Positions 255 through 18,167 of a stretch of DNA of 33,732 bases are shown here, in pieces. Location: IMG/VR virus record IMGVR_UViG_2061766007_001539. One strand, 5' to 3'. The notes under the pieces are model-generated. The model was not told the DNA's origin. It searched no databases and saw only the letters and a program-made list of their open reading frames with translations. Positions within the stretch are counted from its first letter, which is position 1. Each line of letters starts with the position of its first letter. Made by a program: the position numbers and the translations under genes. Origin of the DNA: an uncultured virus (IMG/VR IMGVR_UViG_2061766007_001539) (taxonomy: Duplodnaviria; Heunggongvirae; Uroviricota; Caudoviricetes).

Positions 255-269
255 GGTTTATCTCCTTTC

Positions 270-755: not shown

Positions 756-769
756 AATGCCACCTCCCA

Positions 770-1671
770 TCAGTTAAAGCCGTTGCATCCACATCCGGCT
801 ACATTCTGCGCGCATGTGAATATCGGAGAATTGCCGTATACAGGCTGTGACGGAATCGGACAGCTGCGGAGTTCTGCAACGAGCTGATTTGCTGTTGTAG
901 CCTGTGACGCTCTTAATTCTGCTGTCTGAGCCACCTGTGATGCCTGCATGTTAGCGAACTGGAGCTGAGATCTGAGATTGTCATTGTCTCTCTTGTAGCC
1001 GTCGAGTTCGAGCTGGCAGAGCTTGTCGAGGATTGCCTGTGTGTTTGCTGTTGAGTTAGCTCTTGTTGCGCATGCTTCCTGTGCGAGCGTGAACTTAACG
1101 TCCTGCGTTGCAGCACGATTATCACAACAACACTGAGCAAGCTGAGCCTGAAGTGCGGTCATGCCCTGAGTCGATGCAGTCTGAGCCGCAAAACTTCTCT
1201 CGAGATCTGCGATCTGGTTAGTGTACATCTGCTGTGTAAGCGCATTCTGAGCGCTGTTTACAGATGCTGTCACGCCGTTTACAGACGTATTCACACTGTT
1301 AAAACCATTGCAGAGCGCCATCTGGATATCACCTGTCGCACCGCACATCTGAGTGCTTAAGCCGCTGATGCCGTCACGTACTGATGTGATGCTGTCAGAA
1401 AGCTGTGCGTTCTGGAATCCGTTTGCAATGTTTGCATTGATCCCGTTCTGACCGTTCCAGAGCCATGGAAACTCTGAGTTACCGTAGCCGCCGAAACCAC
1501 CGCCGAAACCGCCGTTACCAAACATTCCGAAAAGTAAGAACAGAATGATAAGACTGCCCCAGTCGGATCCGAGACCCATACCGCCAATGCCGCCGTTGTT
1601 ATACGGGTAAGCATAGCCGCTGGTCGGTGATACGAGCATTGTTGTGTTCATGCCTTCGTTTTCGCCAAGTG
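770..1671 (-). CDS. Gly-rich/hydrophobic N-terminus, coiled-coil, Cys-rich protein; true start probably inside the gap
   Basis: 293-aa ORF whose frame stays open upstream (LGENEG) into the N-run; LIILFLLFGMF segment, QCCCD, C-terminal GCGCN. Confidence 0.8.
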
Positions 1672-1786
1672 NNNNNNNNNNNNNNNNNNNNNNNNNNNNN
1701 NNNNNNNNNNNNNNNNNNNNNNNNNNNNNNNNNNNNNNNNNNNNNNNNNNNAGTCTAAAAGTTCGTTAAAAACAGAGAAGTTTCGG

Positions 1787-1952
1787 TTATCTTTTAAAAC
1801 ATCCTTGTATCATCTGCATAAACTGAGGGTTAGTCTGAAGCTGCCTTGCCTGCATTGCCGCATTGTTGTACTGCTGCTGTGAAATACCACCGGAATTCAT
1901 CATATACTGTATCATATCCGCCGGTGATCTCATAGCGTTCTGTGGCGGCATC
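1787..1952 (-). CDS. Partial variant copy of the Gln/Met-rich small protein
   Basis: Near-identical to the 3' part of 2069-2314 with scattered substitutions; bounded by gaps. Confidence 0.65.
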
Positions 1953-2068
1953 NNNNNNNNNNATTATTACTCCTTTTGTAGTAAGATTTATATAACCGTC
2001 GCGCGCCGGTTGTATACTGCTAAGTTGTTAGTAGGTCTAAAAGTTCGTTAAAAACAGAGAAGTTTCGG

Positions 2069-2314
2069 TTATCTTTTAAAATATCCTTGTATCATTTGCA
2101 TAAACTGTGGGTTAGTCTGAAGCTGCCTTGCCTGCATTGCCGCATTATTATACTGCTGCTGTGAAATGCCGCCGGAATTCATCATGTACTGTATCATGTC
2201 AGCCGGTGATCTCATAGCGTTCTGCGGCGGCATCTGCATTCCTCTTGACTGAAAAAAGGCGGCCGGATTCTGCATAAACTGCATGAATGCCTGCATATTA
2301 TTCGGGTTCATCAT
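2069..2314 (-). CDS. Gln/Met-rich small protein (81 aa)
   Basis: ORF with RBS GAGGAG; variant copies at 1787-1952 and 10349-10576 differ mostly at synonymous sites. Confidence 0.85.
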   Translation of the reverse strand: MMNPNNMQAFMQFMQNPAAFFQSRGMQMPPQNAMRSPADMIQYMMNSGGISQQQYNNAAMQARQLQTNPQFMQMIQGYFKR

Positions 2315-2375
2315 AGCTTACTCCTCCTCTTTAAGTGACTCGATCCAGTCGCGCATCTTTTTGAANNNNNNNNNN

Positions 2376-2531
2376 GCAACGGTTCAATTCATCAATTTTT
2401 CTCGATAACTCACTGTAGGATTCATTTGAACGTTCTTCCTGTTCCTCTTCCTGCGGTGAGTTTTTCCTTAAACCCCGTCCCACAATCACTGCAATGTACA
2501 TCATCAACGCTATGCAAAGAAACTGACTCAT
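2376..2531 (-). CDS. Small membrane-anchored hypothetical protein, truncated by gap
   Basis: MSQFLCIALMMYIAVIVG...; its ATG overlaps the upstream stop (ATGA). Confidence 0.55.
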
Positions 2532-2731
2532 GGAGAAGCCGCCGCCTTCCATTCGTTGATGATCGTTTCTGAGTCCGCTCGGATCTTGTCAAACTTCGGT
2601 CTCGGAAGACCCCTAAGTGCAGAACTCATGTCATTGGCGCTGACAGTGTAACCGAGATCACGCTTGTTGATTTCAAAAACTAAATCAATCTGCTTCTTGT
2701 TTAAATTAAATAACTCAGCTCTAATATTCAT
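2528..2731 (-). CDS. Cro-like HTH regulator
   Basis: Small ORF divergent from the repressor; HTH-like segment KQIDLV...VSANDMSSALRG; RBS GGAG before ATG 2731. Confidence 0.65.
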   Translation of the reverse strand: MNIRAELFNLNKKQIDLVFEINKRDLGYTVSANDMSSALRGLPRPKFDKIRADSETIINEWKAAASP

Positions 2732-2812
2732 AAAATCACACTCCACTTATGTACAGATACCCAACTTTTTTAGTTTATATTATTGCATCTGACAGAAATT
2801 TTACCTCCCATC

Positions 2813-2841
2813 TTGTAAAAATTCAGTTATAATGTTATAAT
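2813..2841 (+). promoter_or_regulatory. Sigma-A type promoter for the repressor operon
   Basis: TTGTAA-N17-TATAAT with extended -10 TG. Confidence 0.65.
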
Positions 2842-2881
2842 CATAATGTGTGTAATGATTATTACTTATCGCTGTAAGTCA

Positions 2882-2910
2882 ATTATAGCGTACAAATCTT
2901 AGAATTACAA
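2882..2910 (-). promoter_or_regulatory. Sigma-A type promoter for the cro-like operon
   Basis: Minus strand TTGTAA-N17-TATAAT. Confidence 0.65.
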
Positions 2911-2979
2911 GTAGTTTTTCTTAATTTCTTCTAAGAAATAATCAGATTTGTAAGAGTTGTCTAAAAGGAGTTTGCTTAA

Positions 2980-3345
2980 ATGTGCATAATAGACAGAATT
3001 AATGGACTTTTAAAGGAGCGCCAAATAAGCGCTGCTAAGATGATGAGAGATCTTAATCTGTCATCAGGATTGTATTCACAATGGAAAAGCCTTGGGCGTA
3101 TTCCTTCAACGGATAAGATTGAAATGATTGCGGCCTATCTTAATGTTTCAGCCGATTATCTTATTTCCGGAAACACGGAAAACAATGCGCTTGCTATAAA
3201 TAACAATCATAGCGCGTCAATGGTGATCACAGACAGAAATGAACGTCTGCTTATCCAGAATTACAGGGCCTTGCATTACGCAAGACAAATTCAGGTGCTA
3301 TCCTCGCTTATCACTGAGGTAGAAAACAACAACAATGATTCTTAA
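2980..3345 (+). CDS. XRE-family HTH repressor (cI-like)
   Basis: IDRINGLLKERQISAAKMMRDLNLSSGLYSQWK...PSTDKIEMIAAYLNVSADYLISG is a typical XRE HTH; RBS AAGGAG. Confidence 0.9.
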   Translation: MCIIDRINGLLKERQISAAKMMRDLNLSSGLYSQWKSLGRIPSTDKIEMIAAYLNVSADYLISGNTENNALAINNNHSASMVITDRNERLLIQNYRALHYARQIQVLSSLITEVENNNNDS

Positions 3346-3417
3346 TTATCTAAGATTTCGTTATGAAACGAAAACGATAACTAAGCTATAAATATTACTT
3401 ACGAGAAAGGGATTATT

Positions 3418-4212
3418 ATGAAAAAAGAATTCAGAAAACTTATGACTGCTGCTGTCTGTTTTTGCCTGCTCACTGCCGGATGTGGAAGCCAGCCGGAGAC
3501 AGTTGAAACCGAGCCGGAACAGACAGCTTCCGTCACCACTACAGCAAGTGAAACGGAATCTATTGAAACCACGCAGGTAACCACTTCTGTAACCGAAACG
3601 GAAACTACCGTAACTGAAAAAGTCACGACTGTAACTGTATCGGAAACTCAGGAGTCTGAAACTGAAACCACCGTTCCGGTTACAGAAACGGAAACGGCGA
3701 AAGAAATATCTGAGGATGAAGTAAGAGCGCTGACAAATCCGCTCACCAAAGAAGCGGCCGCTCCGTTCCAGGTCAAAGTTTCAAACGTATGGAAAGTCTA
3801 CTGGATCAACGTTTCACGCAGTGATCTTTATGGCATGAAGCCGGATGATTTCAAATTCTTTGATGATTATATCAACGAACACTTTGAAGCTGACGCCTGC
3901 GAGTTTTACGTAGTTGTCACCGACGTTCCGGATCTCTGCTTTCAGTTCACAGTAACTAAGAGCGAATATGTGAGAAGCACTTGTGAAGCATTCGCTGGAA
4001 TTACAAAGACTGATTCAAGTCAGCATTATCCTTACTGCGGAACTGGTTCATGTGCCATCAGGTACAATGATCCTGAACAGTTTGAAATGCAGGCGTTGAC
4101 CAAGGACAAATATGGAATTGAACAGTACGATGATAGTAAGATCTATCATTTTTCAGAATTTGGTGATGATATGTTCGCACAGCTTGATGAATTACAGCGA
4201 AACGCTCGTTAA
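3418..4212 (+). CDS. Lipoprotein with Thr/Glu-rich linker (lysogeny module)
   Basis: Basic N-terminus, hydrophobic stretch, lipobox LTAGC, TETET-type low-complexity region. Confidence 0.8.
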   Translation: MKKEFRKLMTAAVCFCLLTAGCGSQPETVETEPEQTASVTTTASETESIETTQVTTSVTETETTVTEKVTTVTVSETQESETETTVPVTETETAKEISEDEVRALTNPLTKEAAAPFQVKVSNVWKVYWINVSRSDLYGMKPDDFKFFDDYINEHFEADACEFYVVVTDVPDLCFQFTVTKSEYVRSTCEAFAGITKTDSSQHYPYCGTGSCAIRYNDPEQFEMQALTKDKYGIEQYDDSKIYHFSEFGDDMFAQLDELQRNAR

Positions 4213-4434
4213 ATATAATCAAATACCACGAAACACCCATCAAATATAATAAAATATCAACAGGACAGGCACTAAACTGGAATGCATGGTCAGTTTAAAC
4301 GTGCGGAGAGTAGTACGATAGCCTGTCCTGCTGACTGTTATCAGTATAACATACCGTTTTGGTCGGTTTAAAGAGATAAAAAGGTCAAGTTTAGGTCATA
4401 AAAAGGTCGAAAACAGGATGAAAAGAGGTAATAT

Positions 4435-5763
4435 ATGTTGCAGAAAAGAATATCCGAGATAATACGTAACCTGAAACGTGTCANNNNNNNNNNTGAACCT
4501 CAGCGTTTATCACGTGGTGATCTCGAAGATATCGGCCGATTATCCAAGCTGTTAAGATACACACACACTTACGTCTTAACACTGCAATACAGCTATGATC
4601 TCAGTGACGAGCGCGACCGTGATTATTTCGAGCGAGAATTGAAGCGAGGCAATGAATACCTGGAATATTCAAAGCGCATCATGGCAAACGGCAAAGCGCT
4701 TGCTGCCGAAAACGGAAACTATCTCGGCAGTCATGCGCCGTTTGGATATAAGCGAGTTAAATACAAGGAAGGAAAGAGACACGTCAGCACGCTGGAGATC
4801 ATACCAGAAGAAGCAGAGGTCATTCGTGAGATATACCGCATGTATGCGGATGGTATTGGATCTGTGCGTATTTGCAAGCACCTGAATCAATACTGCAAGC
4901 CACAACGCGGCAAACTGTGGGCGAGGTCGTCGATATATCATATTTTGAAAAATCCGCTTTACCTCGGCAAGATAAAGTGGCAGCACAGAAAAATCATACA
5001 GACTGTCGAGGACGGCGAGATCGTCAAGCACTCTCATGAACGTAAGGATTATCCTGTTTACGAAGGAAAGCATGAGGCGATCGTCTCGCAGGAGCTGTGG
5101 GATGCGGTAAGAGCCCGTCAGGAAGCGCACGACATTCCGAAGGTGACAGCTTCCACCAAGTTACGAAACCCGCTCGCGGGAATAGTAAGCTGTGAGTGCG
5201 GATCCACGATGATGATGTGGACTGATCCTAAAGGCAGTGCACGTGCCCGTCTTGTATGTGCGAAAAAAATGTCCTGCAATTCCGCGTCATGTACATATGA
5301 CGAAATGCAGGACATAGTCGCCGAGATCCTCCGCCAGTCGATCGCTGACTTCGAGGTGAAAATCGAATCCGGCGCTGACGACCGTATTGCCGAAAAAGAA
5401 GAGTTCAAGGACCAGCTCCGCCGCCGCCTTGCCGCTCTTGATGATAAGGAAACTTCGATCTGGGAGAAGTATGCCGAAGGAATGCCGAAACGCGTGTTCG
5501 ATTCGCTTATTTCAGAACTGACAGAAGAGCGCTCCCGTATTGAGACCACACTGGAGGAGGCAGAAAAGGAAAAGCCGATCAGATATTCCGACCTCGTTAC
5601 CACGTTTCATGCCGCTCTGGAGTGTCTTGATTCTGATTTGACCGCAGATAAGAAAAATGCACTCCTTAAGAAGTGCATTCGTAAAATTATTTATCATCGG
5701 CCGCAGGGTAAGAGCAAGCACGACATGAAACCCATAAATGTGGACGTTGAGCTTAATATCTGA
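4435..5763 (+). CDS. Large serine recombinase (integrase); N-terminal catalytic part lost in gap 4484-4493
   Basis: QRLSRGD, APFGY, ILKNPLYLG, GKHEAIVSQELW, zinc-ribbon LAGIVSCECG, coiled coil. The 16 aa before the gap may belong to another ORF. Confidence 0.92.
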   Translation: MLQKRISEIIRNLKRVXXXXEPQRLSRGDLEDIGRLSKLLRYTHTYVLTLQYSYDLSDERDRDYFERELKRGNEYLEYSKRIMANGKALAAENGNYLGSHAPFGYKRVKYKEGKRHVSTLEIIPEEAEVIREIYRMYADGIGSVRICKHLNQYCKPQRGKLWARSSIYHILKNPLYLGKIKWQHRKIIQTVEDGEIVKHSHERKDYPVYEGKHEAIVSQELWDAVRARQEAHDIPKVTASTKLRNPLAGIVSCECGSTMMMWTDPKGSARARLVCAKKMSCNSASCTYDEMQDIVAEILRQSIADFEVKIESGADDRIAEKEEFKDQLRRRLAALDDKETSIWEKYAEGMPKRVFDSLISELTEERSRIETTLEEAEKEKPIRYSDLVTTFHAALECLDSDLTADKKNALLKKCIRKIIYHRPQGKSKHDMKPINVDVELNI

Positions 5764-5768
5764 GTATT

Positions 5769-5810
5769 ACTATCATGTACATACTGTTTGGTGTGTATGT
5801 ACATGTTGGT
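5769..5810. other. Candidate attP (inverted repeat just after the recombinase)
   Basis: CATGTACATAC-N10-GTATGTACATG (5774-5805) with imperfect extension and no U-tract. Confidence 0.55.
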
Positions 5811-5851
5811 TATTGCCGGAATCACGATATCTTTTCCGTGCTCCGAAGTAA

Positions 5852-5869
5852 ACAAAAATCAAATTTGGT
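5852..5869. repeat. 18-bp quasi-palindromic boundary motif, copy 1
   Basis: Minus strand ACCAAATTTGATTTTTGT, directly after a TGA stop. Confidence 0.7.
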
Positions 5870-6046
5870 TCACCGCATCTTCTTGTTGAGCCAGTCAGTC
5901 TTAATGGTTGACTTTTCCTTGTAATCGTCGATACAATCATCCATGTACTGAGGTAGTATACCGTTGATTGCGGTTACAGCTTCAAGAAGTTCGCCTTGAC
6001 GCTCCGTTCTTTTGTTAAGGTCTTCACGTATTTTCTTATCGTCCAT
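5870..6046 (-). CDS. 58-aa hypothetical protein
   Basis: Not in the track: MDDKKIREDLNKRTERQGELL...WLNKKMR*, RBS GAGGTG. Confidence 0.7.
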   Translation of the reverse strand: MDDKKIREDLNKRTERQGELLEAVTAINGILPQYMDDCIDDYKEKSTIKTDWLNKKMR

Positions 6047-6063
6047 ACTGCACCTCTTTCTCT

Positions 6064-6081
6064 ACAAAATTAAATTTTGGT
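6064..6081. repeat. 18-bp quasi-palindromic boundary motif, copy 2
   Basis: Minus strand ACCAAAATTTAATTTTGT, just before an RBS. Confidence 0.7.
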
Positions 6082-6129
6082 ACGGACATTAACGTCCTTA
6101 CCTAAGTATATAAAGCAAAATAATATAGG

Positions 6130-6162
6130 AAAGGCCCCTGAACCGCTCTATCAGGGGCCTTT
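6130..6162 (-). terminator. Intrinsic terminator after the endolysin
   Basis: AAAGGCCCCTGA...TCAGGGGCCTTT stem. Confidence 0.65.
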
Positions 6163-6220
6163 CGCTGGCTTTGAAAAATCTCACAGGTTTATTATATCTG
6201 TTTTAATATTAAATGTCAAG

Positions 6221-6997
6221 CTATTTTCTTTTTCTGGCTATTGGTTCACACTTCCAGAGTGCAGTTAATGTAAGCACACCGGCAATACCGTCCGGATCAA
6301 GAGCATGATCGCGTTGGTACTTCATCACGGCATTTTCCGTGTCGGGTCCGAATTCGCCGTCATCACCGCACTGGCCGACAGAATATCCATCGGCAAAGAG
6401 TAAGCGCTGTAAGGTCTTCACGTCGCCGCCGGTCATGCCTTTGCGGAGCTGTCGCACCTTAAGAACGACCTCTTTTTCCACCGGCTTTTCATCCGGCTTC
6501 TTTTCAGGCTCTTTCTCAGGCTTGTTATCATCTTCTGCCGGTCTTTCGTTGAGATCACCGATATACCGCATCCAGTATGCCACTAACATGAGGCCGTTGC
6601 TGTCTTTAGCTTCCAGATTGATAAACTGTTGTGTTACGTAATGCGAGCTTGAACCGTTCCCGTTTGCATACGTTATCTGTAATGTGTCTTCATCAAACGC
6701 GAGAACTATTCCGACGTGGTCTAATGGGCGCTCTTCCGACATATTGTGATCCCAGTCAAAAAACAGAATGTCTCCCGGCTCAGGGAAACCAATCGGTTCA
6801 TACCAGTTGATATTCTGACTCATTGCCCGCTGCATCATAGTACAGGACGTTGACGTTACACCTTCGCCGACTCCGGCACGATTGAGAACACTTGAAACCC
6901 ACGCAGCGCACCACGCATAATCTCCGGCACAGCCGACTTCATCACGGCTCTTTCCAATATCGCTTTTTGCAATTCTAACTATTTCTTCCCATTTCAC
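6221..6997 (-). CDS. Endolysin: CHAP/NlpC-type amidase plus C-terminal peptidoglycan-binding domain
   Basis: YAWCAAWVS and DHVGIV catalytic Cys/His; KPE linker; LRKGMTGGDVKTLQ...DGEFGPDTENAV...DGIAG; next to the holin. Confidence 0.9.
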   Translation of the reverse strand: MKWEEIVRIAKSDIGKSRDEVGCAGDYAWCAAWVSSVLNRAGVGEGVTSTSCTMMQRAMSQNINWYEPIGFPEPGDILFFDWDHNMSEERPLDHVGIVLAFDEDTLQITYANGNGSSSHYVTQQFINLEAKDSNGLMLVAYWMRYIGDLNERPAEDDNKPEKEPEKKPDEKPVEKEVVLKVRQLRKGMTGGDVKTLQRLLFADGYSVGQCGDDGEFGPDTENAVMKYQRDHALDPDGIAGVLTLTALWKCEPIARKRK

Positions 6998-6999
6998 AA

Positions 7000-7416
7000 T
7001 TATTCCCCCTTGTTATCCTCATTGTTTTTTCCTTTTTCTGTGAGTTGTTTCAATGCCTTCTTAAGAACATCCGGCACCGGAATGCCGATCAACACAGCGT
7101 TTTCTAATATGCTGATGCCTTCATTTCCAATATAAAACATCAAGGCCGCCGACATGATAATCGACTTGTCACCGATCACATGAACGTCTATGATATGACA
7201 GATGCTTACAAGACACAGGATCATGATCTTTTTTGCGATCCCCTTGAAACCCGTTGAACTGGATAGCTGCTTCATATAGATCGCCTTGATCCATCCTGTC
7301 ACATAGTCAACCGCCATCATAAAGATAAGCGCCTTAAATAATCCCGTCATCTCGCCGAAACAGAAGCCGATAACCGCTCCTGCGGCAAGAGAAATGCCAT
7401 GCACTGTGTCTTTCAT
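7000..7416 (-). CDS. Phage holin (holin_4_1-like family)
   Basis: VDYVTG, LSSSTGFKGIAKK, NEGISILEN, GIPVP motifs; likely start MKDTV at 7416. Confidence 0.9.
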   Translation of the reverse strand: MKDTVHGISLAAGAVIGFCFGEMTGLFKALIFMMAVDYVTGWIKAIYMKQLSSSTGFKGIAKKIMILCLVSICHIIDVHVIGDKSIIMSAALMFYIGNEGISILENAVLIGIPVPDVLKKALKQLTEKGKNNEDNKGE

Positions 7417-7486
7417 CGTCTCACCGCCTTTCATAAGTTCATGATAACCCATAAAACAAGTATCATTCAACCCCATAATCAGCACA

Positions 7487-7517
7487 AAACCCCTGATCCG
7501 AACGCGGTCAGGGGTTT
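7487..7517 (-). terminator. Intrinsic terminator
   Basis: AAACCCCTGA...TCAGGGGTTT stem downstream of the 7539 stop. Confidence 0.6.
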
Positions 7518-7538
7518 CGTTATGTTATTGATTCAGGA

Positions 7539-7712
7539 TCATTCCTGACCGAGTGCGTTGAGTGCTTTCTGAATTGCGTGCTGCGCTTCCGGAGAAACGT
7601 TATTCATCATGCCTTCCATTTCACCCATAAGTCGGTCTTTCGCTTCGTCGTGACTGTATCCATCGGCATATCTGCCCATGCTGTCACGTCTTCTCATGCC
7701 GCTCATACCGCC
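7539..7712 (-). CDS. C-terminal fragment of the RDG-repeat protein family (cf. 1-254)
   Basis: GGMSGMRRRDSMGRYADGYS... is unrelated to the DUF4406 part across the gap. Confidence 0.65.
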   Translation of the reverse strand, partial: GGMSGMRRRDSMGRYADGYSHDEAKDRLMGEMEGMMNNVSPEAQHAIQKALNALGQE

Positions 7713-7722
7713 NNNNNNNNNN

Positions 7723-7982
7723 ATCTGATGTTCAAGCTTACAGCCTCTTGCTTCTTCCCAACCTTCCATGAAGTAAACTGCATCTACAGTTGACATCGCT
7801 TCGATAGCCTTTGAGAGGTACCATACAGGCTTGTTCTGTGCTTCTTCAGGTGAATCTGCAAAAACAGTGTCAATTGTTTCGTAACCTTTTTCAAGGAGTT
7901 CCTTTACTACTGACTCTCTTTCTGCGTTAATCTGTTCTTTTGTCTTACCTTTCATTGGCTGTGAAATCATTACTTTCTTCAT
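7723..7982 (-). CDS. DUF4406-like protein (nucleoside deoxyribosyltransferase-like fold), truncated by gap
   Basis: MISQPMKG...DAVYFMEGWEEARGCKLEH. Confidence 0.75.
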
Positions 7983-8002
7983 TATTTTCTTTTCCTTTCT
8001 CT

Positions 8003-8020
8003 ACAAAAATCAAATTCGGT
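8003..8020. repeat. 18-bp quasi-palindromic boundary motif, copy 3
   Basis: Minus strand ACCGAATTTGATTTTTGT between a stop and an RBS. Confidence 0.7.
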
Positions 8021-8028
8021 TCGGCTGA

Positions 8029-8274
8029 TTATAAATCAATGCCTTCAATCTCAGCACGAAGGTCTAAGCACTTAATGTATTCCCACATATATGCTTCCTG
8101 CTTTTTGAGCAGTTCAAGACTACACTTAGGTTCAAATGTGAGTGTACCAGCTTCGTATTTTGTAACCATTGTGTGAAGCTTGTCGAAACGGATCTTTAAC
8201 TGATAATACTCAGCCTTGAATCGTTCCTTGAAATCTTCACTGTTCATCATTTCAATTGTGTCTTTTAATTCCAT
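8029..8274 (-). CDS. Small phage protein (crAss001_48-like family)
   Basis: KERFKAEYYQLKIR...LLKKQ...RAEIEGIDL pattern recognised by eye; RBS AAAGGA. Confidence 0.7.
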   Translation of the reverse strand: MELKDTIEMMNSEDFKERFKAEYYQLKIRFDKLHTMVTKYEAGTLTFEPKCSLELLKKQEAYMWEYIKCLDLRAEIEGIDL

Positions 8275-8296
8275 TTTTCTTTTCCTTTCTTAACAG

Positions 8297-8314
8297 ACCA
8301 AATTAAATTTTGGT
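8297..8314. repeat. 18-bp quasi-palindromic boundary motif, copy 4
   Basis: Minus strand ACCAAAATTTAATTTGGT, 5 nt after a stop. Confidence 0.7.
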
Positions 8315-8319
8315 ACGGC

Positions 8320-8466
8320 TTATTCAGCTCTTAAAGCTTCCTCAATATCTGCTATGTCAACAGCTGTCAGTTTCGGATAGCTTCTCGCAACCTGTTCAAA
8401 AGTTTCACCATTTAACATTCTTCTTTTAAAGACTGACACCATGAGTTTTAACTTTGCATTACTCAT
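8320..8466 (-). CDS. 48-aa hypothetical protein
   Basis: Not in the track: MSNAKLKLMVSVFKRRMLNGETFEQVARSYPKLTAVDIADIEEALRAE*; RBS GGAGGTG; ATGA overlap with the upstream gene. Confidence 0.75.
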   Translation of the reverse strand: MSNAKLKLMVSVFKRRMLNGETFEQVARSYPKLTAVDIADIEEALRAE

Positions 8467-8729
8467 TCTTTGTCACCTCCGAAAAGTAACTCAGCAAGGA
8501 CATCTTCAATCTCTGTCGTTCTGTCTTCTGTTGCCCAAAGTTCTCTTACATATTCATAGATTTCTTTTTTGATTTTAAGGTAGTCATACTGATAAAGCTT
8601 TTCTGTTCTACCTTGTTCATCTTTTCTTTCTATCTCAGTCATGTTCTTATATAAGTAAACATATACTTCAGATGATGTGTCGTCTATTGCTGGTAGTATT
8701 TCTGTACTTTCGCACTTTTTCCAGTCCAT
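8463..8729 (-). CDS. Hypothetical protein, possibly tail-fibre-associated
   Basis: 88-aa ORF starting 2 nt after the RT stop with RBS GAGGAGG; C-terminal EDVLAEL helix. Confidence 0.7.
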   Translation of the reverse strand: MDWKKCESTEILPAIDDTSSEVYVYLYKNMTEIERKDEQGRTEKLYQYDYLKIKKEIYEYVRELWATEDRTTEIEDVLAELLFGGDKE

Positions 8730-8731
8730 CG

Positions 8732-9790
8732 TTAATCCCTCCTCTTGGAATCTTCAGATATAATTCTTTTAAGATCATCAAAATTTATATATGGGTCGAT
8801 GTATCTTTGCATAAAGTAATAAGAATCCGTGTGTTTTATCCAGCCGTAATAAGCCATCATTCTTCTTGCATCTTCTACGGATATTGTTTCTTGATTGCCA
8901 AGTTTACGGGCTAAAACCATAGCTTTTCTCGCTATGGATCTTCTCATAGTTGTATGATCTCGGTAAAATCTGAATCCCATAAAATCAACAAATCGTCCTT
9001 TATGGTCTTTCGTGTCAAATCTGAATATCTGCCAGTTATCTTTAAACCAAACATGAAGATTTTCCTGTAGATATTGCAGCATACGTTCTCTATCTTTATG
9101 CAGTTCTTTCTTGTTAGAACCGAAAATAACCATATCGTCCATGTAACGCATATAGTATTTCACATTGAGATCTTCTTTCACAAAATGATCAAAGTCTTGC
9201 AGATAGAAGTTAGCAAACCATTGTGATGTATAAAATCCTAAAGGTAAGCCTTTATCAGATGTACGTATAATCTTTATAAGTAAATCCATGAACTTTTTAT
9301 CATCAATGATTTTTTCCAATTTAGCGATTAGAATATCTTGGTCAATGTTTTCAAAGAATTTTCTTATATCAAATTTACCACAGTACTTAATATGCCTACC
9401 ACCTTCTTCAATCCATTTCATCATGCGAAACGCTCCATTGTGACAACCTCTATCCGGGATAGAAGCGTAAGAATGCTCGTACATGCCTTTCATGAAGATA
9501 GGTTTCAAAACTAACATAACACAGTGTTGTACTATATGCTCTTCTACGGTTGGAACGATAATTTCACGTTGCTTTTCACCATCTATAATGATTTTGGTTT
9601 CGTGATTAACCGGAGAATAATTCTCCAGAACGTTACGTATTTTCGGGATTTCTGATTCGATATTTGTGTCAATCCTAAGTAGGGTCATCTTTTTCTCGCC
9701 TTTTACAGAACCGTGAGAAGCTTTATGTACAGCTTCTCGTATATTCTCGTCAGAAATCAATTCTTCCCATAAATATTTATATGTTTTCAT
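8732..9790 (-). CDS. DGR reverse transcriptase
   Basis: 352 aa; KFDIRKFF, GLPLGFYTSQ (DGR-type GxxxSQ), RYMDD, DFMGF; no maturase or endonuclease extension; TR immediately upstream. Confidence 0.95.
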   Translation of the reverse strand: MKTYKYLWEELISDENIREAVHKASHGSVKGEKKMTLLRIDTNIESEIPKIRNVLENYSPVNHETKIIIDGEKQREIIVPTVEEHIVQHCVMLVLKPIFMKGMYEHSYASIPDRGCHNGAFRMMKWIEEGGRHIKYCGKFDIRKFFENIDQDILIAKLEKIIDDKKFMDLLIKIIRTSDKGLPLGFYTSQWFANFYLQDFDHFVKEDLNVKYYMRYMDDMVIFGSNKKELHKDRERMLQYLQENLHVWFKDNWQIFRFDTKDHKGRFVDFMGFRFYRDHTTMRRSIARKAMVLARKLGNQETISVEDARRMMAYYGWIKHTDSYYFMQRYIDPYINFDDLKRIISEDSKRRD

Positions 9791-9964
9791 TTATTCTCTC
9801 TTATCCTTTCTTGACCGCTTTCTTATTTATCTCTATAGAGCAGGTGCGTAACGCACCCCACCCTAAAATATAGAAATATCAATTACTAACAGTCGTATGT
9901 CGAAAGCAAATTTCACCAAGGGGTGAGGACTTAACGAAGCGTATATGATATAAAGCTTTTGTTA

Positions 9965-10076
9965 AGGATTAGTTAGCGAGCCCTCGATATTCCAATTGGA
10001 ATTAGAAGCGGAATTGTTCAGATTGACATAGAAACCACAATTAGCGTCATTGTCAGAATTGCCACCTACATAGGCT
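9965..10076 (-). repeat. DGR template repeat (TR); ends approximate
   Basis: No start codon, but reads AYVGGNSDNDANCGFYVNLNNSASNSNWNIEGSLTN with 10 AAY codons; the 3' end matches the VR remnant with mismatches only at TR adenines. Confidence 0.9.
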
Positions 10077-10155
10077 GTGCTTCGATAAACCCTGTTAATT
10101 TTATTATATGTGTTGTAAGCAATTTAACTTTTATTATTACTGATTTGCGGATTTA

Positions 10156-10211
10156 TTGGAGACAACTACGTTTTCTCCAAACCTCTTTCCTTAAGCAAAC
10201 CTACGGTTTGC
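10156..10211 (-). other. Tandem hairpins downstream of VR (candidate DGR homing elements)
   Basis: GCAAACC-GTA-GGTTTGC (10195-10211) and TTGGAGAAAAC-GTA-GTTGTCTCCAA (10156-10180). Confidence 0.7.
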
Positions 10212-10232
10212 AAGAGAGCGAGCCCCCGATAT
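10201..10232 (-). repeat. 3' remnant of the DGR variable repeat / target-gene C-terminus (IGGSLSCKP*)
   Basis: ATATCGGGGGCTCGCTCTCTTG versus TR ATATCGAGGGCTCGCTAACTAA; the rest is lost in the gap. Confidence 0.85.
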
Positions 10233-10348
10233 NNNNNNNNNNTTAATTACTCCTTTTGTGGTAAGATTTATATAACCGTCGCGCGCCGGTTGTATACTGC
10301 TAAGATGTTAGTAAGTTGAAAAGTTTGTTTAAAAGGCAGAAGTTTCTT

Positions 10349-10576
10349 TTATTTTTTAAAGTATCCTTGTATCATTTGCATAAACTGCGGATTACTCTGC
10401 AGTTGCCTTGCCTGCATTGCCGCATTATTATACTGTTGCTGTGAAATACCGCCGGAATTCATCATATACTGGATCATGTCCTGCGGTGATCGCATCGCAC
10501 TCTGAGGCGGCATCTGCATACCGCGGGACTGGAAAAATCCCGCCGGATTCTGCATAAACTGCATGAAAGCCTGCAT
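10349..10576 (-). CDS. Variant copy of the Gln/Met-rich protein (a matching MMNPNN start lies at 11584-11601)
   Basis: High similarity to 2069-2314. Confidence 0.75.
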   Translation of the reverse strand: MQAFMQFMQNPAGFFQSRGMQMPPQSAMRSPQDMIQYMMNSGGISQQQYNNAAMQARQLQSNPQFMQMIQGYFKK

Positions 10577-10677
10577 NNNNNNNNNNNNNNNNNNNNNNNN
10601 NNNNNNNNNNNNNNNNNNNNNNNNNNNNNNNNNNNNNNNNNNNNNNNNNNNNNNNNNNNNNNNNNNNNNNNNNNNNN

Positions 10678-11008
10678 CCTTCGGCGGCTCGACCGGCTCT
10701 TCCGGCTTTTCCTGCTTTTCCGCTGTAATAGCATCGTCCTCAAATACGATCCGTGCTTTTCGGAATATAGGCTGGTCAAGCTGTGAATAACCCATTGTTT
10801 TTTCATATAAATACGGGCCGTTTTCGTCCCTCATGGTTACCGTATAACCAGGTGCGACAGGATAACGCCGCGCTTCATCCTCGTTCGCCACCGACACAAT
10901 GCCGCCGCTTCTGATCTGCTGCGGAGCCGGCTGCTGCTGTTGTCCCGCCGTGTACATGTTCTGCATCTGCGGATAATAGGAAGGATAAGAATACTGCGGA
11001 TAGATCAT
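10678..11008 (-). CDS. Tyr/Gln/Pro-rich hypothetical protein, N-terminal part (C-terminus probably 11598-11687)
   Basis: MIYPQYSYP...EARRYPVAPG; RBS AAGGAGG; ATGA overlap. Confidence 0.75.
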
Positions 11009-11391
11009 GCCTTATCCTCCTTAAGCGTAAAGTAATAGCTCGGTACAAGGCTTCCTGAATCCCATGTGTCGAAGTAATTACCGTCCTGCGCAGTGACTAC
11101 ATGAGAGCCGGTTGCAATGATAAACGTTCCGATCGGATGATCATCCACAAAGTCAGCGATAGTATAACAGTCCGGGCATGTGTCCGGCAGAACGTGCATT
11201 TCAAAGCCGTGTTCTTTCAGATACTTTTCCCACACAGCGTTAGTATCTCCCCACATAGCCTTTTCAAGGCCCTTAACTGTGAGTTCCATGTACACTTTCT
11301 CCCAGTCCTTATCAAACGCCTTACAGATGGCCCTGATAACACAGTCGCCTGTATTGATCCCTCTCGGATTTGGATTGTATTCTATAAACAT
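11005..11391 (-). CDS. Hypothetical protein with papain-like Cys/His/Asp pattern
   Basis: YNPNP...GDCVIRAI...HVVTAQDG...DTWDSG; likely start MFIEY. Peptidase function is inferred. Confidence 0.7.
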   Translation of the reverse strand: MFIEYNPNPRGINTGDCVIRAICKAFDKDWEKVYMELTVKGLEKAMWGDTNAVWEKYLKEHGFEMHVLPDTCPDCYTIADFVDDHPIGTFIIATGSHVVTAQDGNYFDTWDSGSLVPSYYFTLKEDKA

Positions 11392-11508
11392 AATCGCACC
11401 GCCTTTCGTTACCTCCATTATGGCAAAAAAATAACCCGTTCACAAGGATGTGAACAGGCTATTTTCGGGGTTTTTGGAGGGTGTTTTCAGTCAATTTTCA
11501 GGCTAATT

Positions 11509-11573
11509 TCAGGTTATTTTTAACCGCTCGTTCATCAGTTTTCTGACAAGTGAGCGAACATACCGCGGAGACA
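11509..11573 (-). CDS. C-terminal fragment of the sigma-region-4-like HTH protein (N-terminus at 13308-13444)
   Basis: SPRYVRSLVRKLMNERLKIT* completes the HTH begun by GLTYEKIAEIY. Confidence 0.65.
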
Positions 11574-11697
11574 NNNNNNNNNNGTTATTCGGGTTCATCA
11601 TGACGCATCCTCCTCTTTAAGTGACTCGATCCAGTCACGCATCTTTTTAAATTCCAATGCCACCGCGTCCCTGAGCGCTTCGAGCTGNNNNNNNNNN

Positions 11698-12878
11698 CAG
11701 TAATATGTGGATGATGATCCTGAGAAAGTAGTTCCTTTATAACCCATTACATTATCCGCTGTCATCTTAGTCACATAACCACCGTTGTTTGCAGGAGCAC
11801 CAAAATTAAGATATCCAGTACCTGTAGTGTTGTAATCTGAAGCTGTACTTCCATCATATGTGCCACGTGTCATCTTAACCATGATTGATGATGTGGTAGT
11901 TAATAATCCAGCAATACGTTTATATCTTAAACCCCAGAAGTTTTCAATTCCAAGCGTTTTAACTGCTGTATTTTGTCCGGAAGTATCACCGTAAAACAGA
12001 CCCTTATCATTCAAAGAACCCGTGGTATAAGCTCTTTTGGCTGATGAAGATCCAGTTGTTATGCCTTGACCATAGGTGCCTTGTAAGTCTAAAGATTTAC
12101 CCATTAGATACAATAAATCATATACTAAACACCAGTCAGCCCATACACCAGTATACCAACCCGCTGATGCCCCATTTGCAACTGCTGTTGATACTTCAGT
12201 TGATACTGTAGTGTCTTCCGGTGCATTAGTTGAAGTCAAAGTAACACCTGAAAGAGAACGAGTCTTGCTCGACTTTACACAAATATCATAAGCCGCCATG
12301 TAGAAATGATCTATCTCTTGATTAGATGCATTTACGTTAGAAAAACATTTGTAGTTTCCATCTACATTTGTTTGTGCTATATATACAGTACGTTCACCAT
12401 TTAATGAACCGGGAACACGTTTAATGTATATTTTTGGGAATTCCATCATAACGTTTCCGTCATAGTTCTGATTGGCTATGTCAGATGCTGTTCCATCAGC
12501 TTTTTTACTGTAATCATTGGGATCTAAATAATAGTCAACCGTTCCATCTGATTTAAGCATACACGGTTTAGGAAGAAACCACGCATTTTCCCATGACCCA
12601 TAACTAAATGTGGATGAACCCATCTTAGCCGGAGTCATACCAACTGCATCTTCAACATATGTTACCGCAGCAGATGGGTCTGATTCTGATGGATTAACAT
12701 GATACCCATAGATCGTTGGTGCAGGCGGTGGAGTTGGGATTGTCAATATATCCGCAGGAAACTCCTCAAACCCATCACCAGAATTTACAGTACCACCCTT
12801 AGCAGTAATAGCGTCAGCGATATCAGATTTAGCAGTTACAAGTCGCTGTAAGTTTGTTGCTATTGTATTATTTGGCAT
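11698..12878 (-). CDS. DGR target: putative tail-fibre/receptor-binding protein with CLec/FGE-like C-terminal domain; VR missing in gap
   Basis: Tail-like N-terminus; VMMEFPK, GIENFWG, GSSSTYY(C/W), then an N-run where the VR should start. The ORF-track tail beyond the gap belongs to another gene. Confidence 0.85.
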
Positions 12879-12879
12879 A

Positions 12880-13297
12880 TCAGAGCACCCCCTCTAAGAC
12901 AGCGTTGATATTGCCTATAATACCCACAACGCTAACTTCGGTTACGTCAGCACTGTCCCAAGCACCGGCACTATGAGCACTGGTAAACTCATACAGTGAA
13001 TTATTGTAAGTGACATAATCACCCACTGAATATGCAGTAGATGTAGAAAATTCTGTATCACAGATCATATCTTCTACCGACAAAATATTTGTTTGGTTCG
13101 CTACTATAGCAGCGTTTACTACTTTATTTTGTACAGGATTAGTAGATGTGGCGCTTAAAGCATCATCTACTATAGTTTTGTTAGCCATAGCTTCAATATT
13201 ACCTAGCTTGTTCTTTTCTTCTGTTGTATAGTCGTTTGATGATAATCCCTTACCGGTTTCTTTATCTACCTTGTTTCCAAGTGCAGTTTTAATCGCA
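12880..13297 (-). CDS. Tail-fibre-like protein, C-terminal fragment, with CBM5/12-like motif
   Basis: KVDKETGKGLSSNDYTTEEKNKL motif; FSTSTAYSVGDYVTYNNSLY. Confidence 0.7.
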
Positions 13298-13307
13298 NNN
13301 NNNNNNN

Positions 13308-13444
13308 TATATCTCAGCGATTTTTTCATAAGTGAGTCCGTCAATGAGCTTAAGCTTCATGATCTGACGGTCACGTTCGGAGTGGATGTGTTCGCCGATA
13401 AGCTCGGCAAGTTCAGAGTTCGTTAGTTGGATGTAATGCTGCAT
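13308..13444 (-). CDS. Small sigma-70 region 4-like HTH protein, N-terminal part
   Basis: Translated by hand: MQHYIQLTNSELAELIGEHIHSERDRQIMKLKLIDGLTYEKIAEIY; RBS AAGGGGTG. Confidence 0.7.
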
Positions 13445-13554
13445 ATGTTGGACACCCCTTTTTATTATTCAATTGTCATGGTTGATTGACCTATTTATTA
13501 GGTTATTTATAGTTTAAATGATAATCAGTGTATCATGCAACACCATCTTTACAT

Positions 13555-13632
13555 AAAAAAAGAAAAAGGCCAGCATATAAATGCCGACCTTCTTCTATTA
13601 CAAGGAGACTCTAATTGACAGATAAGAGTCCG
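13555..13632 (-). ncRNA. Candidate ~80-nt small RNA
   Basis: Promoter TTGACA-N17-TAGACT (13666-13638), GACTCT/AGAGTC stem, terminator AGGTCGGCAT/ATGCTGGCCT plus U-tract; no convincing ORF. Confidence 0.5.
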
Positions 13633-13672
13633 TTAACAGTCTATCATAGATGATCTGTGATGTCAAGAGCCT

Positions 13673-13690
13673 ACCAAATAAGATTTTGGT
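13673..13690. repeat. 18-bp quasi-palindromic motif, copy 5 (more divergent)
   Basis: Minus strand ACCAAAATCTTATTTGGT, 6 nt upstream of a -35 box. Confidence 0.5.
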
Positions 13691-13719
13691 AAAGCATTTC
13701 TTTATTTCAATGTGAATGA

Positions 13720-16260
13720 TTATCTTGCTTCACCATAAAGTTTGTTAAAATATGAAGGGTTGCTTTCTCCAACTTCATTAATACAGCGCACTATTTCCGA
13801 TGCAATACGCATATATCCAACCCTTCCATAATGTAATAATTTATCATATGGCTGATTGATCATCCTCTCTGCATAAGTGAGAATTTTAGATTTGTCTAAT
13901 CTGAGTACAGGTAAAGAGTAATGTTCTCCAAGTCCAACTATCTGTGATGTAAAATTAGGTCTGTTGTCTCTGTTTACTGTCCAACCGGATGTACAAAGGA
14001 ATATTGAAGCTTGTGGGTTAGCTTCAATTATCATTTCAATTATTTTGCAATAATAACCCATCATAGATTCTTCTGAACTATCGTAATTTCCATCTACTCC
14101 ACCATTTGTTCCGAGGAAAATAATGAACGCATCATAATTCATCCAGTTTGTCTGTTCTTCTGTGAAAGTGCTGCTGTATCTTTCATACCATGTCTTTGTA
14201 GACTGTCCGCCCATTCCAAGGTTCTGCACATCTGCATCTATGAGTTTGGCTAAAAAAGCAGGATAACAGTACTCAGGGAAAATACCATACTCTGTGGTAC
14301 CATCAGAACCATATTCACCTTGTGTTAAACTGTCACCTATACAGCACACTTTTCTAAATATATGTGCAAATGACACGTTATCCAAACAAGCTTCTTCCAT
14401 GTTCTTTGATATATCAAGATTTGGCATTGTAATAGTGTTGTACTTAGAACCAACTCTAAATTCTGCGTTTTTTAATATTACAAAGTCTTCTGCATACTTA
14501 AAGTTAATATATGCCTTATTAACATTCGGCGGAACAATCACTTCAATATAATCCGAATACTTTGTCTGAATATTCTGGAAAGCTACAACAAAGGTATCTC
14601 CATTAAAGAAAACACCATTCTGACCATCTAAAGCTGATGTTTCAAAGCTCCATCTAAGAACATCACCTGCATTAACATCAACTGCTGTATAATGATATGT
14701 AGAGCTTGATGAGATATTACCATAATTATTATAATATCCGTCGCCATATGTTGTTCCATCAAAAATATTCCCCTGTTCTATCTGTTTAGATATATCAAGA
14801 TTAGGGATCGTAGTCACGCCATACTCTGCATCTGCCCTGAAATCAGAGTTTTTAATTATAACAAATGATTCCGGATCTTTAAAGTTTACATATGCCTTAG
14901 TGACATTTGCCGGAACAACCACTTCAATATAAGTCGTATGTGTTGTCTGAATGTTTTGAAAAGCTACGGCAAAAGTGTTGCCATTAAAGAAAACACCATT
15001 TTGATTATTTAATGCAGCAGTTTCATAATTCCATTTGAGAACATCGCCTTCTTTAACTGCAACCTCTGCATAATGATATGTAGCACTTGGAACTAAAGTT
15101 CCTAAATTGCTGTAATATCCATCACCATATGTAATACCGTCAAAGATATTTCCTGTTTCTATTTCTTTAGACAAATAACTATAGCGATTAGTAACACTAT
15201 TTACCTGCTCTCTCACCGCATCACCCGCACTGCTTGCCGTTGTTCCGTCAGCTTTTGTACGAATATCAGTAAGCTCTGCGTCAGCTGTTGTACTTCCGTC
15301 CGGTAAAGCAATGATATTATCAATACGTGCTGTCTGCGTTGCAATATCAGTTTCGGCATCTGATACACGTTCCGTTAATGCAACCAAACTACTGTTTTGT
15401 TCGTCAAGTGCTGCCTTGATGACACTGTTCTGCACTGGATTTGGACTTGACGCGCTTAATGCGTTATCAACTACCGTCTTATTCGCCTGTGCTTCGATAC
15501 CGGCGAGTTTGTTTTTCTCTTCTGTTGTATAATCATTGGTACTAAGTCCCTTGCCTGTTTCTTTATCGACCTTACCGGCAAGTCCGCTTGTTACGTCTGA
15601 ACTGTTGGCTTTCGCGTTAAGAGCCGTCTGGAGTCCTTCGACGTTCTCGATCTTTGTTGCAGGATAAATGTTATTTACATTGCCGTTCTCATCTTTGATA
15701 TGAACGAGAGCATTTATGTCCTGTGCTGCCATATCATTTTCCTCCTCTATATATTCTATGTTCCTATTCCATGTCGAATCAGAAATAGTGCTTTCTCCGC
15801 TAATACTTAATTCAAGAAGATCTCTGAGAATATATGTTGCATCTGTCTGAATAAACTTTGTGCCATTGTCAGAATTATCAACGTCTCCGTTGCGGTGTGA
15901 CATTTCAATATAGGTTTCAGGGTATTTCTGCTTTCCTTCTTCACTGATAAGATCATCAAGGACAGACTCGCCGCTCACTGAAACCGAAAGTGCTTCTCTG
16001 AGTATAATTGTGGCATCAATCTGAGTAACCTTTCCGTCAAGATTGACGTCACCTCTGAGATAATCCTCATCAACTGGTTCGTCACTTTCTGCCTGGATGG
16101 TTTCTGCATCAACCTCCGGATCCTGCTGATCGTCGTTTGTAACTGAAACCGGCTGTTCTTCTTCTGCTGCAAATATTGTCTGTGCTGATGGTATTGTAAC
16201 GTCTGCCATCATTGCAAAAGCGAGAACACTTGCTGCAATTTTTCTGAATTTTTCTGACAT
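13720..16260 (-). CDS. Signal peptide + dockerin + tail-fibre-like region + two 127-aa repeats + SGNH/GDSL hydrolase
   Basis: MSEKFRKIAASVLAFAMMA; paired Ca-loops GDVNLDGKVTQIDATIILR / GDVDNSDNG...TDATYILR; KVDKETGKGLSTNDYT; GDSLTQG, FLGTN, DKLLH. No gap inside the gene. Confidence 0.85.
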   Translation of the reverse strand: MSEKFRKIAASVLAFAMMADVTIPSAQTIFAAEEEQPVSVTNDDQQDPEVDAETIQAESDEPVDEDYLRGDVNLDGKVTQIDATIILREALSVSVSGESVLDDLISEEGKQKYPETYIEMSHRNGDVDNSDNGTKFIQTDATYILRDLLELSISGESTISDSTWNRNIEYIEEENDMAAQDINALVHIKDENGNVNNIYPATKIENVEGLQTALNAKANSSDVTSGLAGKVDKETGKGLSTNDYTTEEKNKLAGIEAQANKTVVDNALSASSPNPVQNSVIKAALDEQNSSLVALTERVSDAETDIATQTARIDNIIALPDGSTTADAELTDIRTKADGTTASSAGDAVREQVNSVTNRYSYLSKEIETGNIFDGITYGDGYYSNLGTLVPSATYHYAEVAVKEGDVLKWNYETAALNNQNGVFFNGNTFAVAFQNIQTTHTTYIEVVVPANVTKAYVNFKDPESFVIIKNSDFRADAEYGVTTIPNLDISKQIEQGNIFDGTTYGDGYYNNYGNISSSSTYHYTAVDVNAGDVLRWSFETSALDGQNGVFFNGDTFVVAFQNIQTKYSDYIEVIVPPNVNKAYINFKYAEDFVILKNAEFRVGSKYNTITMPNLDISKNMEEACLDNVSFAHIFRKVCCIGDSLTQGEYGSDGTTEYGIFPEYCYPAFLAKLIDADVQNLGMGGQSTKTWYERYSSTFTEEQTNWMNYDAFIIFLGTNGGVDGNYDSSEESMMGYYCKIIEMIIEANPQASIFLCTSGWTVNRDNRPNFTSQIVGLGEHYSLPVLRLDKSKILTYAERMINQPYDKLLHYGRVGYMRIASEIVRCINEVGESNPSYFNKLYGEAR

Positions 16261-18164: not shown

Positions 18165-18167
18165 ATA

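Follow-up and report, generated by a model that had tools for sequence, protein, structure and literature searches.

Short palindromic sites with slot-specific spacers mark changes of gene content among related rumen phages and suggest natural cassette exchange

Introduction

Why does one short palindrome recur at the edges of small accessory genes in a temperate phage, and what could it do there? We addressed this question for an 18-base-pair (bp) quasi-palindrome in a 33,732-nucleotide (nt) stretch of DNA from an uncultured virus of the Caudoviricetes (IMG/VR record IMGVR_UViG_2061766007_001539), hereafter called the window. An earlier note, made from the letters of the window, had read the motif as a recombination site for single-gene cassettes with integron- or pdif-like logic. 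Judging from sequence comparison with related phages, the sites are very probably module boundaries where the gene content of relatives changes. We also think it probable, with less assurance, that they are tyrosine-recombinase sites whose spacer acts as an address, and that phages use them to exchange cassettes naturally, not for insertion of the integron type. Phage mosaicism at gene boundaries is a long-standing question, and the usual answer is random or short-homology recombination together with selection; the sites described here point to built-in, labelled crossover points.

Results and discussion

Anatomy of the sites

The motif is built as 6-6-6, with a left arm ACCAAA, a 6-bp spacer and a right arm TTT(G/T)GT. 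The window contains five intergenic copies and two within tail-gene open reading frames (ORFs). Lengths of proteins and their genes are given in amino acids (aa).

8297..8314, minus strand: site with spacer ATTTAA (ACCAAA ATTTAA TTTGGT), 5 nt past a 48-aa gene; opens slot 1
8003..8020, minus strand: site with spacer TTTGAT (ACCGAA TTTGAT TTTTGT); closes slot 1
6064..6081, minus strand: site with spacer ATTTAA (ACCAAA ATTTAA TTTTGT); opens slot 2, between lysin and integrase
5852..5869, minus strand: site with spacer TTTGAT (ACCAAA TTTGAT TTTTGT), immediately past a stop codon; closes slot 2
13673..13690, minus strand: site with spacer ATCTTA, following an 863-aa tail/SGNH gene by 29 nt and preceding a TTGACA box by 6 nt
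13080..13097, minus strand: in-frame site with spacer CAAATA in a tail-protein ORF, reading NQTNIL; joint where the tail-protein ends of relatives differ
15383..15400, minus strand: probable in-frame site with spacer CAGTAG within the 863-aa tail gene, from the window sequence only

The consensus placed by the earlier note at 5852, 6064, 8003 and 8297 matches the minus strand exactly at all four positions. The copy at 13673, described there as more divergent, has 0 mismatches, and the statement that all copies are intergenic does not hold for 13080-13097 and 15383-15400. As to the common orientation, the arms are palindromic, so that the spacer alone sets the orientation of a site. The reported distance of 0-8 nt past the stop codon is correct for the bracketed genes (0 nt at 5852, 8 nt at 8003; the distances at 8297 and 13673 are 5 and 29 nt), and the AGAAAG leader does follow three copies (8297, 8003 and 6064). 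The motif is also commoner than chance: with up to three mismatches to that consensus allowed, the window gives 14 matches where 2.68 would be expected, a number reached by 0 of 100 shuffled sequences. A pattern derived from the copies themselves gives 7 matches in 1-16850 against 0.01 expected, an excess that is inflated because the pattern was drawn after the fact. The spacer of site 13673, ATCTTA, recurs in a relative (L079). None of the four sites within 5600-8800 is overlapped by a promoter or terminator match, and an Rfam search of four sources gave no match.

Across 31 sites from the window and its relatives, the invariant core is A-NN-(A)AA, six bases, TTT-NN-T. Core sites of tyrosine recombinases, dif for example, have this layout. 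Position -3 is a pyrimidine and its mirror position a purine in all 31, which extends the arms to 9-11 bp around the 6-bp spacer, so that the dif-type 11-6-11 layout is found throughout this set. Conservation is limited to about 24-28 bp around the sites, with no longer repeat family surrounding them.

Gene content changes behind the 48-aa gene

Slot 1 lies behind a small tail-associated gene that serves as a fixed anchor.

8320..8466, minus strand: 48-aa tail-associated gene that matches no Pfam or NCBIfam family significantly; the anchor that stays fixed upstream of slot 1
8029..8274, minus strand: slot-1 insert, an 81-aa protein of the crAss001_48 family (Pfam PF21825, E 1.5e-20) with its own ribosome-binding site (RBS)

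In relatives, the place of the 81-aa insert is taken by unrelated genes. Orthologs of the 48-aa gene were collected from 22 distinct loci including the window, after removal of duplicates (L046, L070, L071, L072 and L074); L051 ends too early and was dropped, leaving 21 loci scored for a site. Sixteen scored positive, one of which (L082) was discounted as a poly-A/poly-T run. In 15 of 21 loci, a site thus lies at most 60 nt past the stop codon of the 48-aa gene, compared with 6 of 140 other ORFs taken as a control, and 4 of these 6 are themselves sites of the same family. The sequence past the site varies, with ORFs of 68, 69, 80, 97 or 404 aa or inserts without an ORF, and arrays reach four or more units (L043). 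The 48-aa block itself is located before the prohead protease, the lysin or other core genes.

The boundary of similarity coincides with the site. Among five ATAAAA-type loci, site positions 2-15 are 100% identical and the last three bases 30-60%; between L083 and L120, identity runs through the site and ends at the next base. This comparison supports the proposal that breakpoints of gene gain and loss fall in the motif: relatives differ in content from the sites on, with identity lost in or at the right arm. By eye, 3 of 40 flanks of crAss001_48 relatives (L033-L035, one phage group) have a site-like palindrome past the stop codon, so the cargo gene is not always site-bound.

Some inserts have no ORF. 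A 97-nt stretch without a clear ORF stands behind a site in two different phages (L043:5626-5721 and L079:2293-2389; 94% identical); it has no Rfam match and is possibly a small RNA carried as an insert. Other ORF-less inserts between two sites measure 59 nt, with short internal repeats (L078:5173-5231), and 14 nt (L048:4159-4172).

A second slot between lysin and integrase

6221..6997, minus strand: CHAP/peptidoglycan-binding lysin, fixed neighbour upstream of slot 2
6191..6219, minus strand: putative promoter pointing into slot 2, from a perfect (12/12) sigma-70-type match
5870..6046, minus strand: slot-2 insert, a 58-aa protein with its own RBS; no Pfam match
4435..5763, plus strand: large serine integrase (PF07508), interrupted close to its start by an N gap; constant neighbour of slot 2

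The 58-aa protein has 46 homologs, 0 of them with a functional name. We compared slot 2 across contigs of eight metagenome runs, neither of the two runs marked as possible sources of the window being among them; such contigs drop rare forms. Joints from 5870-5874 to 6037-6062 occur in X4, X6, X8, X11 and X12, with both sites retained, and one X11 contig, among the minority of joints whose content could be read, carries 645 other letters between the retained sites. Two further joints (5835-6111 and 5857-6100) cut across the sites. The 212-nt skip expected of clean excision is not among the slot-2 joints listed from these assembled contigs. The empty sites that the earlier note had suggested looking for were likewise not seen in clean form in the contigs, where replaced inserts were found. 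A 3458-nt X7 contig matches the window only at 5855-6081 and a 6675-nt X15 contig only at 5863-6046, so the 58-aa unit is also present in other contexts. A short GGAC...GTCC-type hairpin lies at 6082-6105, before site 6064; since a similar hairpin stands between two sites in an X7 contig, it may be an ORF-less insert.

A pattern for a single site, run against 161 genomes of the genus Ruminococcus, matched 1 genome, within a prophage (L293). Its gene order is lysin, holin, ATTTAA site, an unrelated 224-nt insert, TTTGAT site and tyrosine integrase, and the second (TTTGAT) site was not part of the search pattern. L293 is an independent Ruminococcus-genus prophage with the lysis-integrase slot and spacer pair of the window.

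Spacers are reused and keep their order

The combination ATTTAA...TTTGAT brackets six unrelated inserts, twice in the window and once each in L044, L053, L078 and L293, with 194, 224, 276, 495, 650 and 1217 nt between the sites. These inserts have no common DNA beyond one 32-nt leader (ten pairs among five inserts, and L293 against the two of the window). L044 and L078 have AATTTA, ATTTAA and TTTGAT in common order around unrelated contents, the middle site of L044 having a degenerate left arm, and L041, L042 and L083 have TTCAAG followed by TCCCAG in common.

In-frame sites join constant and variable tail-protein parts

An in-frame tail-gene site was present in 9 of 16 loci scanned, with the spacer CAAATA in 7, ACAATA in 1 and CCAATA in 1. 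Identity of the 120-nt flanks at this site is mostly at background (0.39-0.57). L045 and L078 are 0.93 identical before it and 0.49 after it (120 nt), and L042 gives 0.68-0.70 before and 0.47-0.53 after. As in shufflons, the in-frame site at 13080-13097 and its orthologous positions joins constant and variable protein parts. Between the tail site and the slot-1 site, relatives carry the 88- and 48-aa genes, the variable tail end and, in some cases, a reverse transcriptase accompanied by a template repeat. As the in-frame joint suggests, a likely host-recognition protein may pass its variable end from phage to phage as a unit with the retroelement.

8463..9790, minus strand: 88-aa gene and reverse transcriptase of a diversity-generating retroelement; the transcriptase is present in some relatives and absent in others

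The retroelement occupies 8732-10232 (minus strand) of the window, with its reverse transcriptase, a template repeat at about 9960-10070 and a target-gene end that is cut by an N gap; parts in relatives are L041:2082-2497 and L078:3117-3498. Mismatches between variable and template repeats in relatives are mostly at A (42 of 54 and 26 of 36 positions). An ORF of avd size between target and transcriptase is absent from the window and L041, and L083 has a 144-aa ORF there. In the 863-aa ORF (13720-16311, minus strand), a signal-peptide-like start and a weak dockerin match are joined to a part that resembles a tail fibre, to a repeat spaced at 381 nt and to an SGNH hydrolase domain, suggesting the fusion of a host module of Ruminococcus type with a phage gene.

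Occurrence in other phages and in hosts

Sites of this build are in excess in SPbeta, where 85-134 kilobases (kb; 49 kb in all) hold 7 intergenic sites against 0.86 in shuffled sequence, and in BtCS33 (7 against 0.78), both with annotated genes; with our own ORF calls the figures are 5 against 1.15 and 6 against 0.7. The AAA-N6-TTT sites of SPbeta are 18-mers, and 3 of the 7 overlap stop codons. Since SPbeta is a model phage, the question becomes testable in a laboratory strain. A 99.6-kb phage (G010:C1:78166-98128, L228-L229) has about 20 intergenic sites and many methylase-like genes; its spacers all differ (24 of 24 examined), and the arms reach 11 bp. A 22-letter pattern matched 0 viral contigs. 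Two 18-mer scans gave 78 and 56 matches, most of them single and often intragenic, which we treated as chance; 9 loci from these scans were examined further, and L161 and L167 gave nothing clear.

The idea of a host repeat was discarded: 2 of 5 metagenome-assembled genomes (MAGs) of hosts matched, with similar control matches; the site is in 1 of the 161 Ruminococcus-genus genomes, which are incomplete, against 2 control matches; and the tail-internal form is in 0 of 151. Going by these counts, the motif does not appear to be a site of the host chromosome. Full-text literature contained no description of the sites that we could find, and older phage genome papers outside the reach of that search may mention repeats.

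Candidate enzymes

G003 (65 kb, CheckV 100%) carries four or more sites but matches neither PF00589 nor PF00239, and a PHROGs search with 67 of its ORFs gave no integrase; in G001 the prophage integrase is the only recombinase match. An enzyme, if any, would therefore act in trans. No recombinase gene lies beside the sites in the window, G001, G002 or G003. The search for a co-occurring recombinase proposed by the earlier note accordingly came up empty, with none identified that acts on the window copies. The serine integrase of the window is an unlikely candidate: PF00239 is found in 0 of 5 related virus records, and the slot of L293 adjoins a tyrosine integrase.

Sites of similar build do stand beside tyrosine recombinases elsewhere. 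In the tail locus of a prophage (L082), four CTAAA-CACGGA copies, two of them inverted and in-frame, flank a 334-aa armless tyrosine recombinase that is XerA-like and scores 210 bits against NF040815 (cut-off 220). A search for this type in 201 Lachnospiraceae genomes gave 38 matches in 32 genomes, and 30 loci were examined. Sixteen of the 30 have repeated NNAAA-N6 half-sites with one common spacer and at least one TTT arm, where 0.75 were expected. Some are tail loci and others type I restriction hsdS loci (2 confirmed by Pfam); inverted same-spacer sites are present in L082, L252 and others. These loci link tyrosine recombinases with this build of site and with matched spacers, though the DNA is other DNA and the outer bases differ. 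L246-L275 (e.g. L082:2261-4579, L252, L258, L261 and L267) include predicted shufflons of tail fibre and hsdS, the spacer being particular to each locus. At E 1e-25, 4 of 5 host MAGs gave no match to the L082-type enzyme, and the viral contigs searched contained no relatives of the L082 recombinase, nor of the window lysin.

A second candidate family of 345 aa (L222/L223) is present in SPbeta-like phages and BtCS33. In the comparison built on this family, intergenic sites number 30 against 3.0 expected in G010, 9 against 1.3 in C30-3 and 7 against 1.1 in G012. We also consider a 180-aa prophage recombinase an unlikely candidate. Of its 199 records, 128 are Streptococcus phages, and the one scanned record with only the 180-aa form, a Listeria phage, had 1 site against 0.3. 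Three host MAGs encode Xer-sized tyrosine recombinases.

A model of address-coded exchange, and what weighs against it

To the anatomy and positions of the sites, the content changes and the spacer reuse and order described above, the model that we favour adds an enzyme class, a matching rule and a supply of enzyme in trans, all three of which we infer. A tyrosine recombinase would act on the motif as its core site, with the 6-bp spacer as the address, and crossovers would occur mainly between same-spacer sites of two phage genomes in one cell. A single crossover would give a mosaic genome, and a double crossover at the ATTTAA and TTTGAT sites would swap the gene between them, as in recombinase-mediated cassette exchange. 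Because the two spacers of a pair differ, the insert would be kept from dropping out, and the in-frame sites would allow tail-protein ends to be swapped. The enzyme could come from a co-resident prophage, a shufflon recombinase or host Xer. More tentatively, and on balance with some doubt, we propose that Firmicutes phages share address-coded exchange: accessory genes and tail ends would be swapped slot by slot at AAA-N6-TTT sites with slot-specific spacers, as a between-genome use of the Lachnospiraceae shufflon site family, and small rumen phages without a recombinase would borrow the enzyme in trans. Such an enzyme, acting on symmetric arms around any of many orthogonal 6-bp spacers, would be a useful tool.

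Several observations count against this model. The first concern the address, which is not strict. Six of the 21 48-aa orthologs lack a site, and five spacers follow this gene (AGGTAA 5, ATTTAA 4, TTCAAG 3, AATTTA 2, ATCAAA 1). L120 and L212 have related inserts behind different spacers, and one X12 contig keeps the left arm 6076-6081 with the spacer TTCAAG. L043 has TTCAAG at least twice in direct orientation, so that loss of an insert is possible; the TTTGAT site of L079 is inverted; the ATTTAA/TTTGAT pair occurs twice in the window, though on different contigs; and the sharing of spacers among close relatives can be common descent. Others concern the enzyme. No recombinase is tied to the ACCAAA-type copies of the window, the shufflon sites have AAA-N6-TTT in common with them but mostly lack the outer A and T, and two of three records with the SPbeta-type family show no clear excess in the 50 kb scanned (3 against 1.1 and 3 against 1.3). 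The enrichment of sites gives a mixed picture and follows no single recombinase family.

Alternative explanations

Exchange driven by homology is the alternative that fares best, and we regard it as unlikely. The sites would bind some protein that serves another purpose, or simply be conserved, and phage single-strand-annealing recombinases would cross over at the 18-30 common bases. This needs no dedicated enzyme; G003 has none but encodes a single-strand annealing protein (phrog_4787). Leaders past the right arm are also common to unrelated inserts, and the insert common to L044 and L045 has two different leaders, as extra crossovers near the RBS would produce. A precedent exists in T4-type PeSL cassettes (PMC2839356). 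Homology alone leaves unexplained, however, why the arms stay palindromic although the spacers vary, why similarity breaks off within the right arm, why codons are retained at the tail site in seven genes that are mostly unrelated around it, and why same-build sites stand beside tyrosine recombinases elsewhere.

Integron- or pdif-like capture, in which a gene circle with one site (arm and spacer at its 3' end) is inserted at any site by a single strand exchange that tolerates unlike spacers, we hold to be quite improbable. Stop codons abut the left arm, arrays grow to four or more units in L043, a promoter match is directed into slot 2, the spacer sometimes changes together with the insert (X12, L212 and L155), and the 58-aa unit occurs with both sites in another context (X7); all of these would fit. 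Against capture, the 212-nt joint of clean excision is absent among the slot-2 joints listed, unrelated inserts share closing spacers and spacer order is kept, and there is neither an integron integrase nor, by the genome counts above, a site of this kind on host chromosomes. Of the earlier proposal of cassette recombination sites, the change of content at the sites stands; strict integron or pdif logic is not supported, given unlike spacers, no integrase or attC, and a motif that is not a host site.

That the sites are operators or RNA-processing sites regulating small genes and travelling with them, the alternative raised in the earlier note, is very improbable. In its favour, the motif is palindromic, site 13673 precedes a TTGACA box by 6 nt, and MrpR, a recombinase-fold SPbeta repressor with dispersed sites, is a precedent (PMC10516654). 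Against it, copies sit at stop codons and in-frame in tail genes rather than over promoters, spacers are kept by slot, the content change at the sites is poorly explained, and the MrpR site (SPBRE), compared here by its description, is a 15-bp promoter-region motif.

Relation to known systems

Heterospecific lox/FRT recombinase-mediated cassette exchange is a laboratory method that requires a spacer match at both ends and leaves the insert stable against excision. The window resembles it in having unlike-spacer sites that bracket a gene, and differs in being natural, phage to phage, with a 6-bp spacer, a matching rule that looks leaky and an enzyme that is only inferred. Integrons are alike in their promoterless single-gene units with an RBS, a stop codon at the site, tandem arrays and an upstream promoter. 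Their attC sites are imperfect hairpins of about 55-140 bp with R'/R'' cores. The window, in contrast, is without IntI or long attC hairpins, the contigs compared gave no clean empty site, and replacement dominates over accretion. IntI was not found beside the array (the incomplete window phage has a serine integrase only, G003 no PF00589 match and G001 a prophage integrase), and attC-type hairpins were not evident, with conservation over about 24-28 bp and no attC model search made.

In pdif modules, site pairs bracket small accessory modules. XerC/D dif and pdif sites resemble those of the window in their geometry of about 11-6-11, in the paired sites around small accessory modules and in an enzyme that would act in trans. 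They have distinct XerC and XerD arms, whereas the window arms are near-symmetric (ACCAAA/TTTGGT), and dif occurs once per host chromosome, where the window motif is not so found (dif facts from PMC3025954).

In two tyrosine-recombinase shufflons, Rin of bifidobacterial prophages (PMC6109161) and the hsdS-inverting PsrA (PMC7096588), an armless tyrosine recombinase acts at short in-frame sites to exchange the variable end of a tail or specificity protein. The Rin site is an asymmetric 11-mer (TTCCCTAACCC), unlike the window motif. Shufflons invert within one locus beside their enzyme; the sites of the window differ in spacer within a pair, lack an enzyme in cis and would serve exchange from genome to genome, and no same-spacer inverted sites occur in the window, where pairs have unlike spacers. 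T4-type PeSL cassettes are alike in being repeated intergenic elements where related phages shuffle small genes. A PeSL is a promoter plus stem-loop (PMC2839356), whereas the window sites are 18-28 bp, promoterless, in-frame in genes in some cases and slot-specific in their centres. The feature would thus work like cassette exchange and be built like dif or shufflon sites, while falling outside integrons, pdif modules, shufflons and PeSLs.

Make-up of the window

Positions 1-16850 are an N-gapped scaffold from a temperate phage of rumen Clostridia, with tail genes, reverse transcriptase, holin, CHAP lysin, large serine integrase and repressor; near-identical DNA is present in runs from the bovine gut and from other guts. 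The two site pairs described in the earlier note lie on either side of an N gap (7713-7722). In runs X5, X6 and X7 the sequence past 7712 continues with letters that match the first bases of the window, so the scaffold order is unreliable and scrambled there, and the ORF 7539-7982 is consequently a false fusion. The two site pairs may thus originate from different phages.

7723..7982, minus strand: start of a DUF4406 gene, probably a further insert, cut by the N gap 7713-7722; its fusion past the gap is an assembly artefact

A Gln/Met-rich gene in repeated copies and ORFs fused over 10-N gaps (1787-2314, 10349-11008, 7539-7982 and 11598-12878) likewise imply that the scaffold mixes strains and is out of order. 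Positions 17387-33732, where the pattern drawn from the window copies finds 0 sites, are joined via about 530 N; they carry jumbo-phage-like genes (RNA-polymerase-like fragments, from translations only) and probably belong to a different virus.

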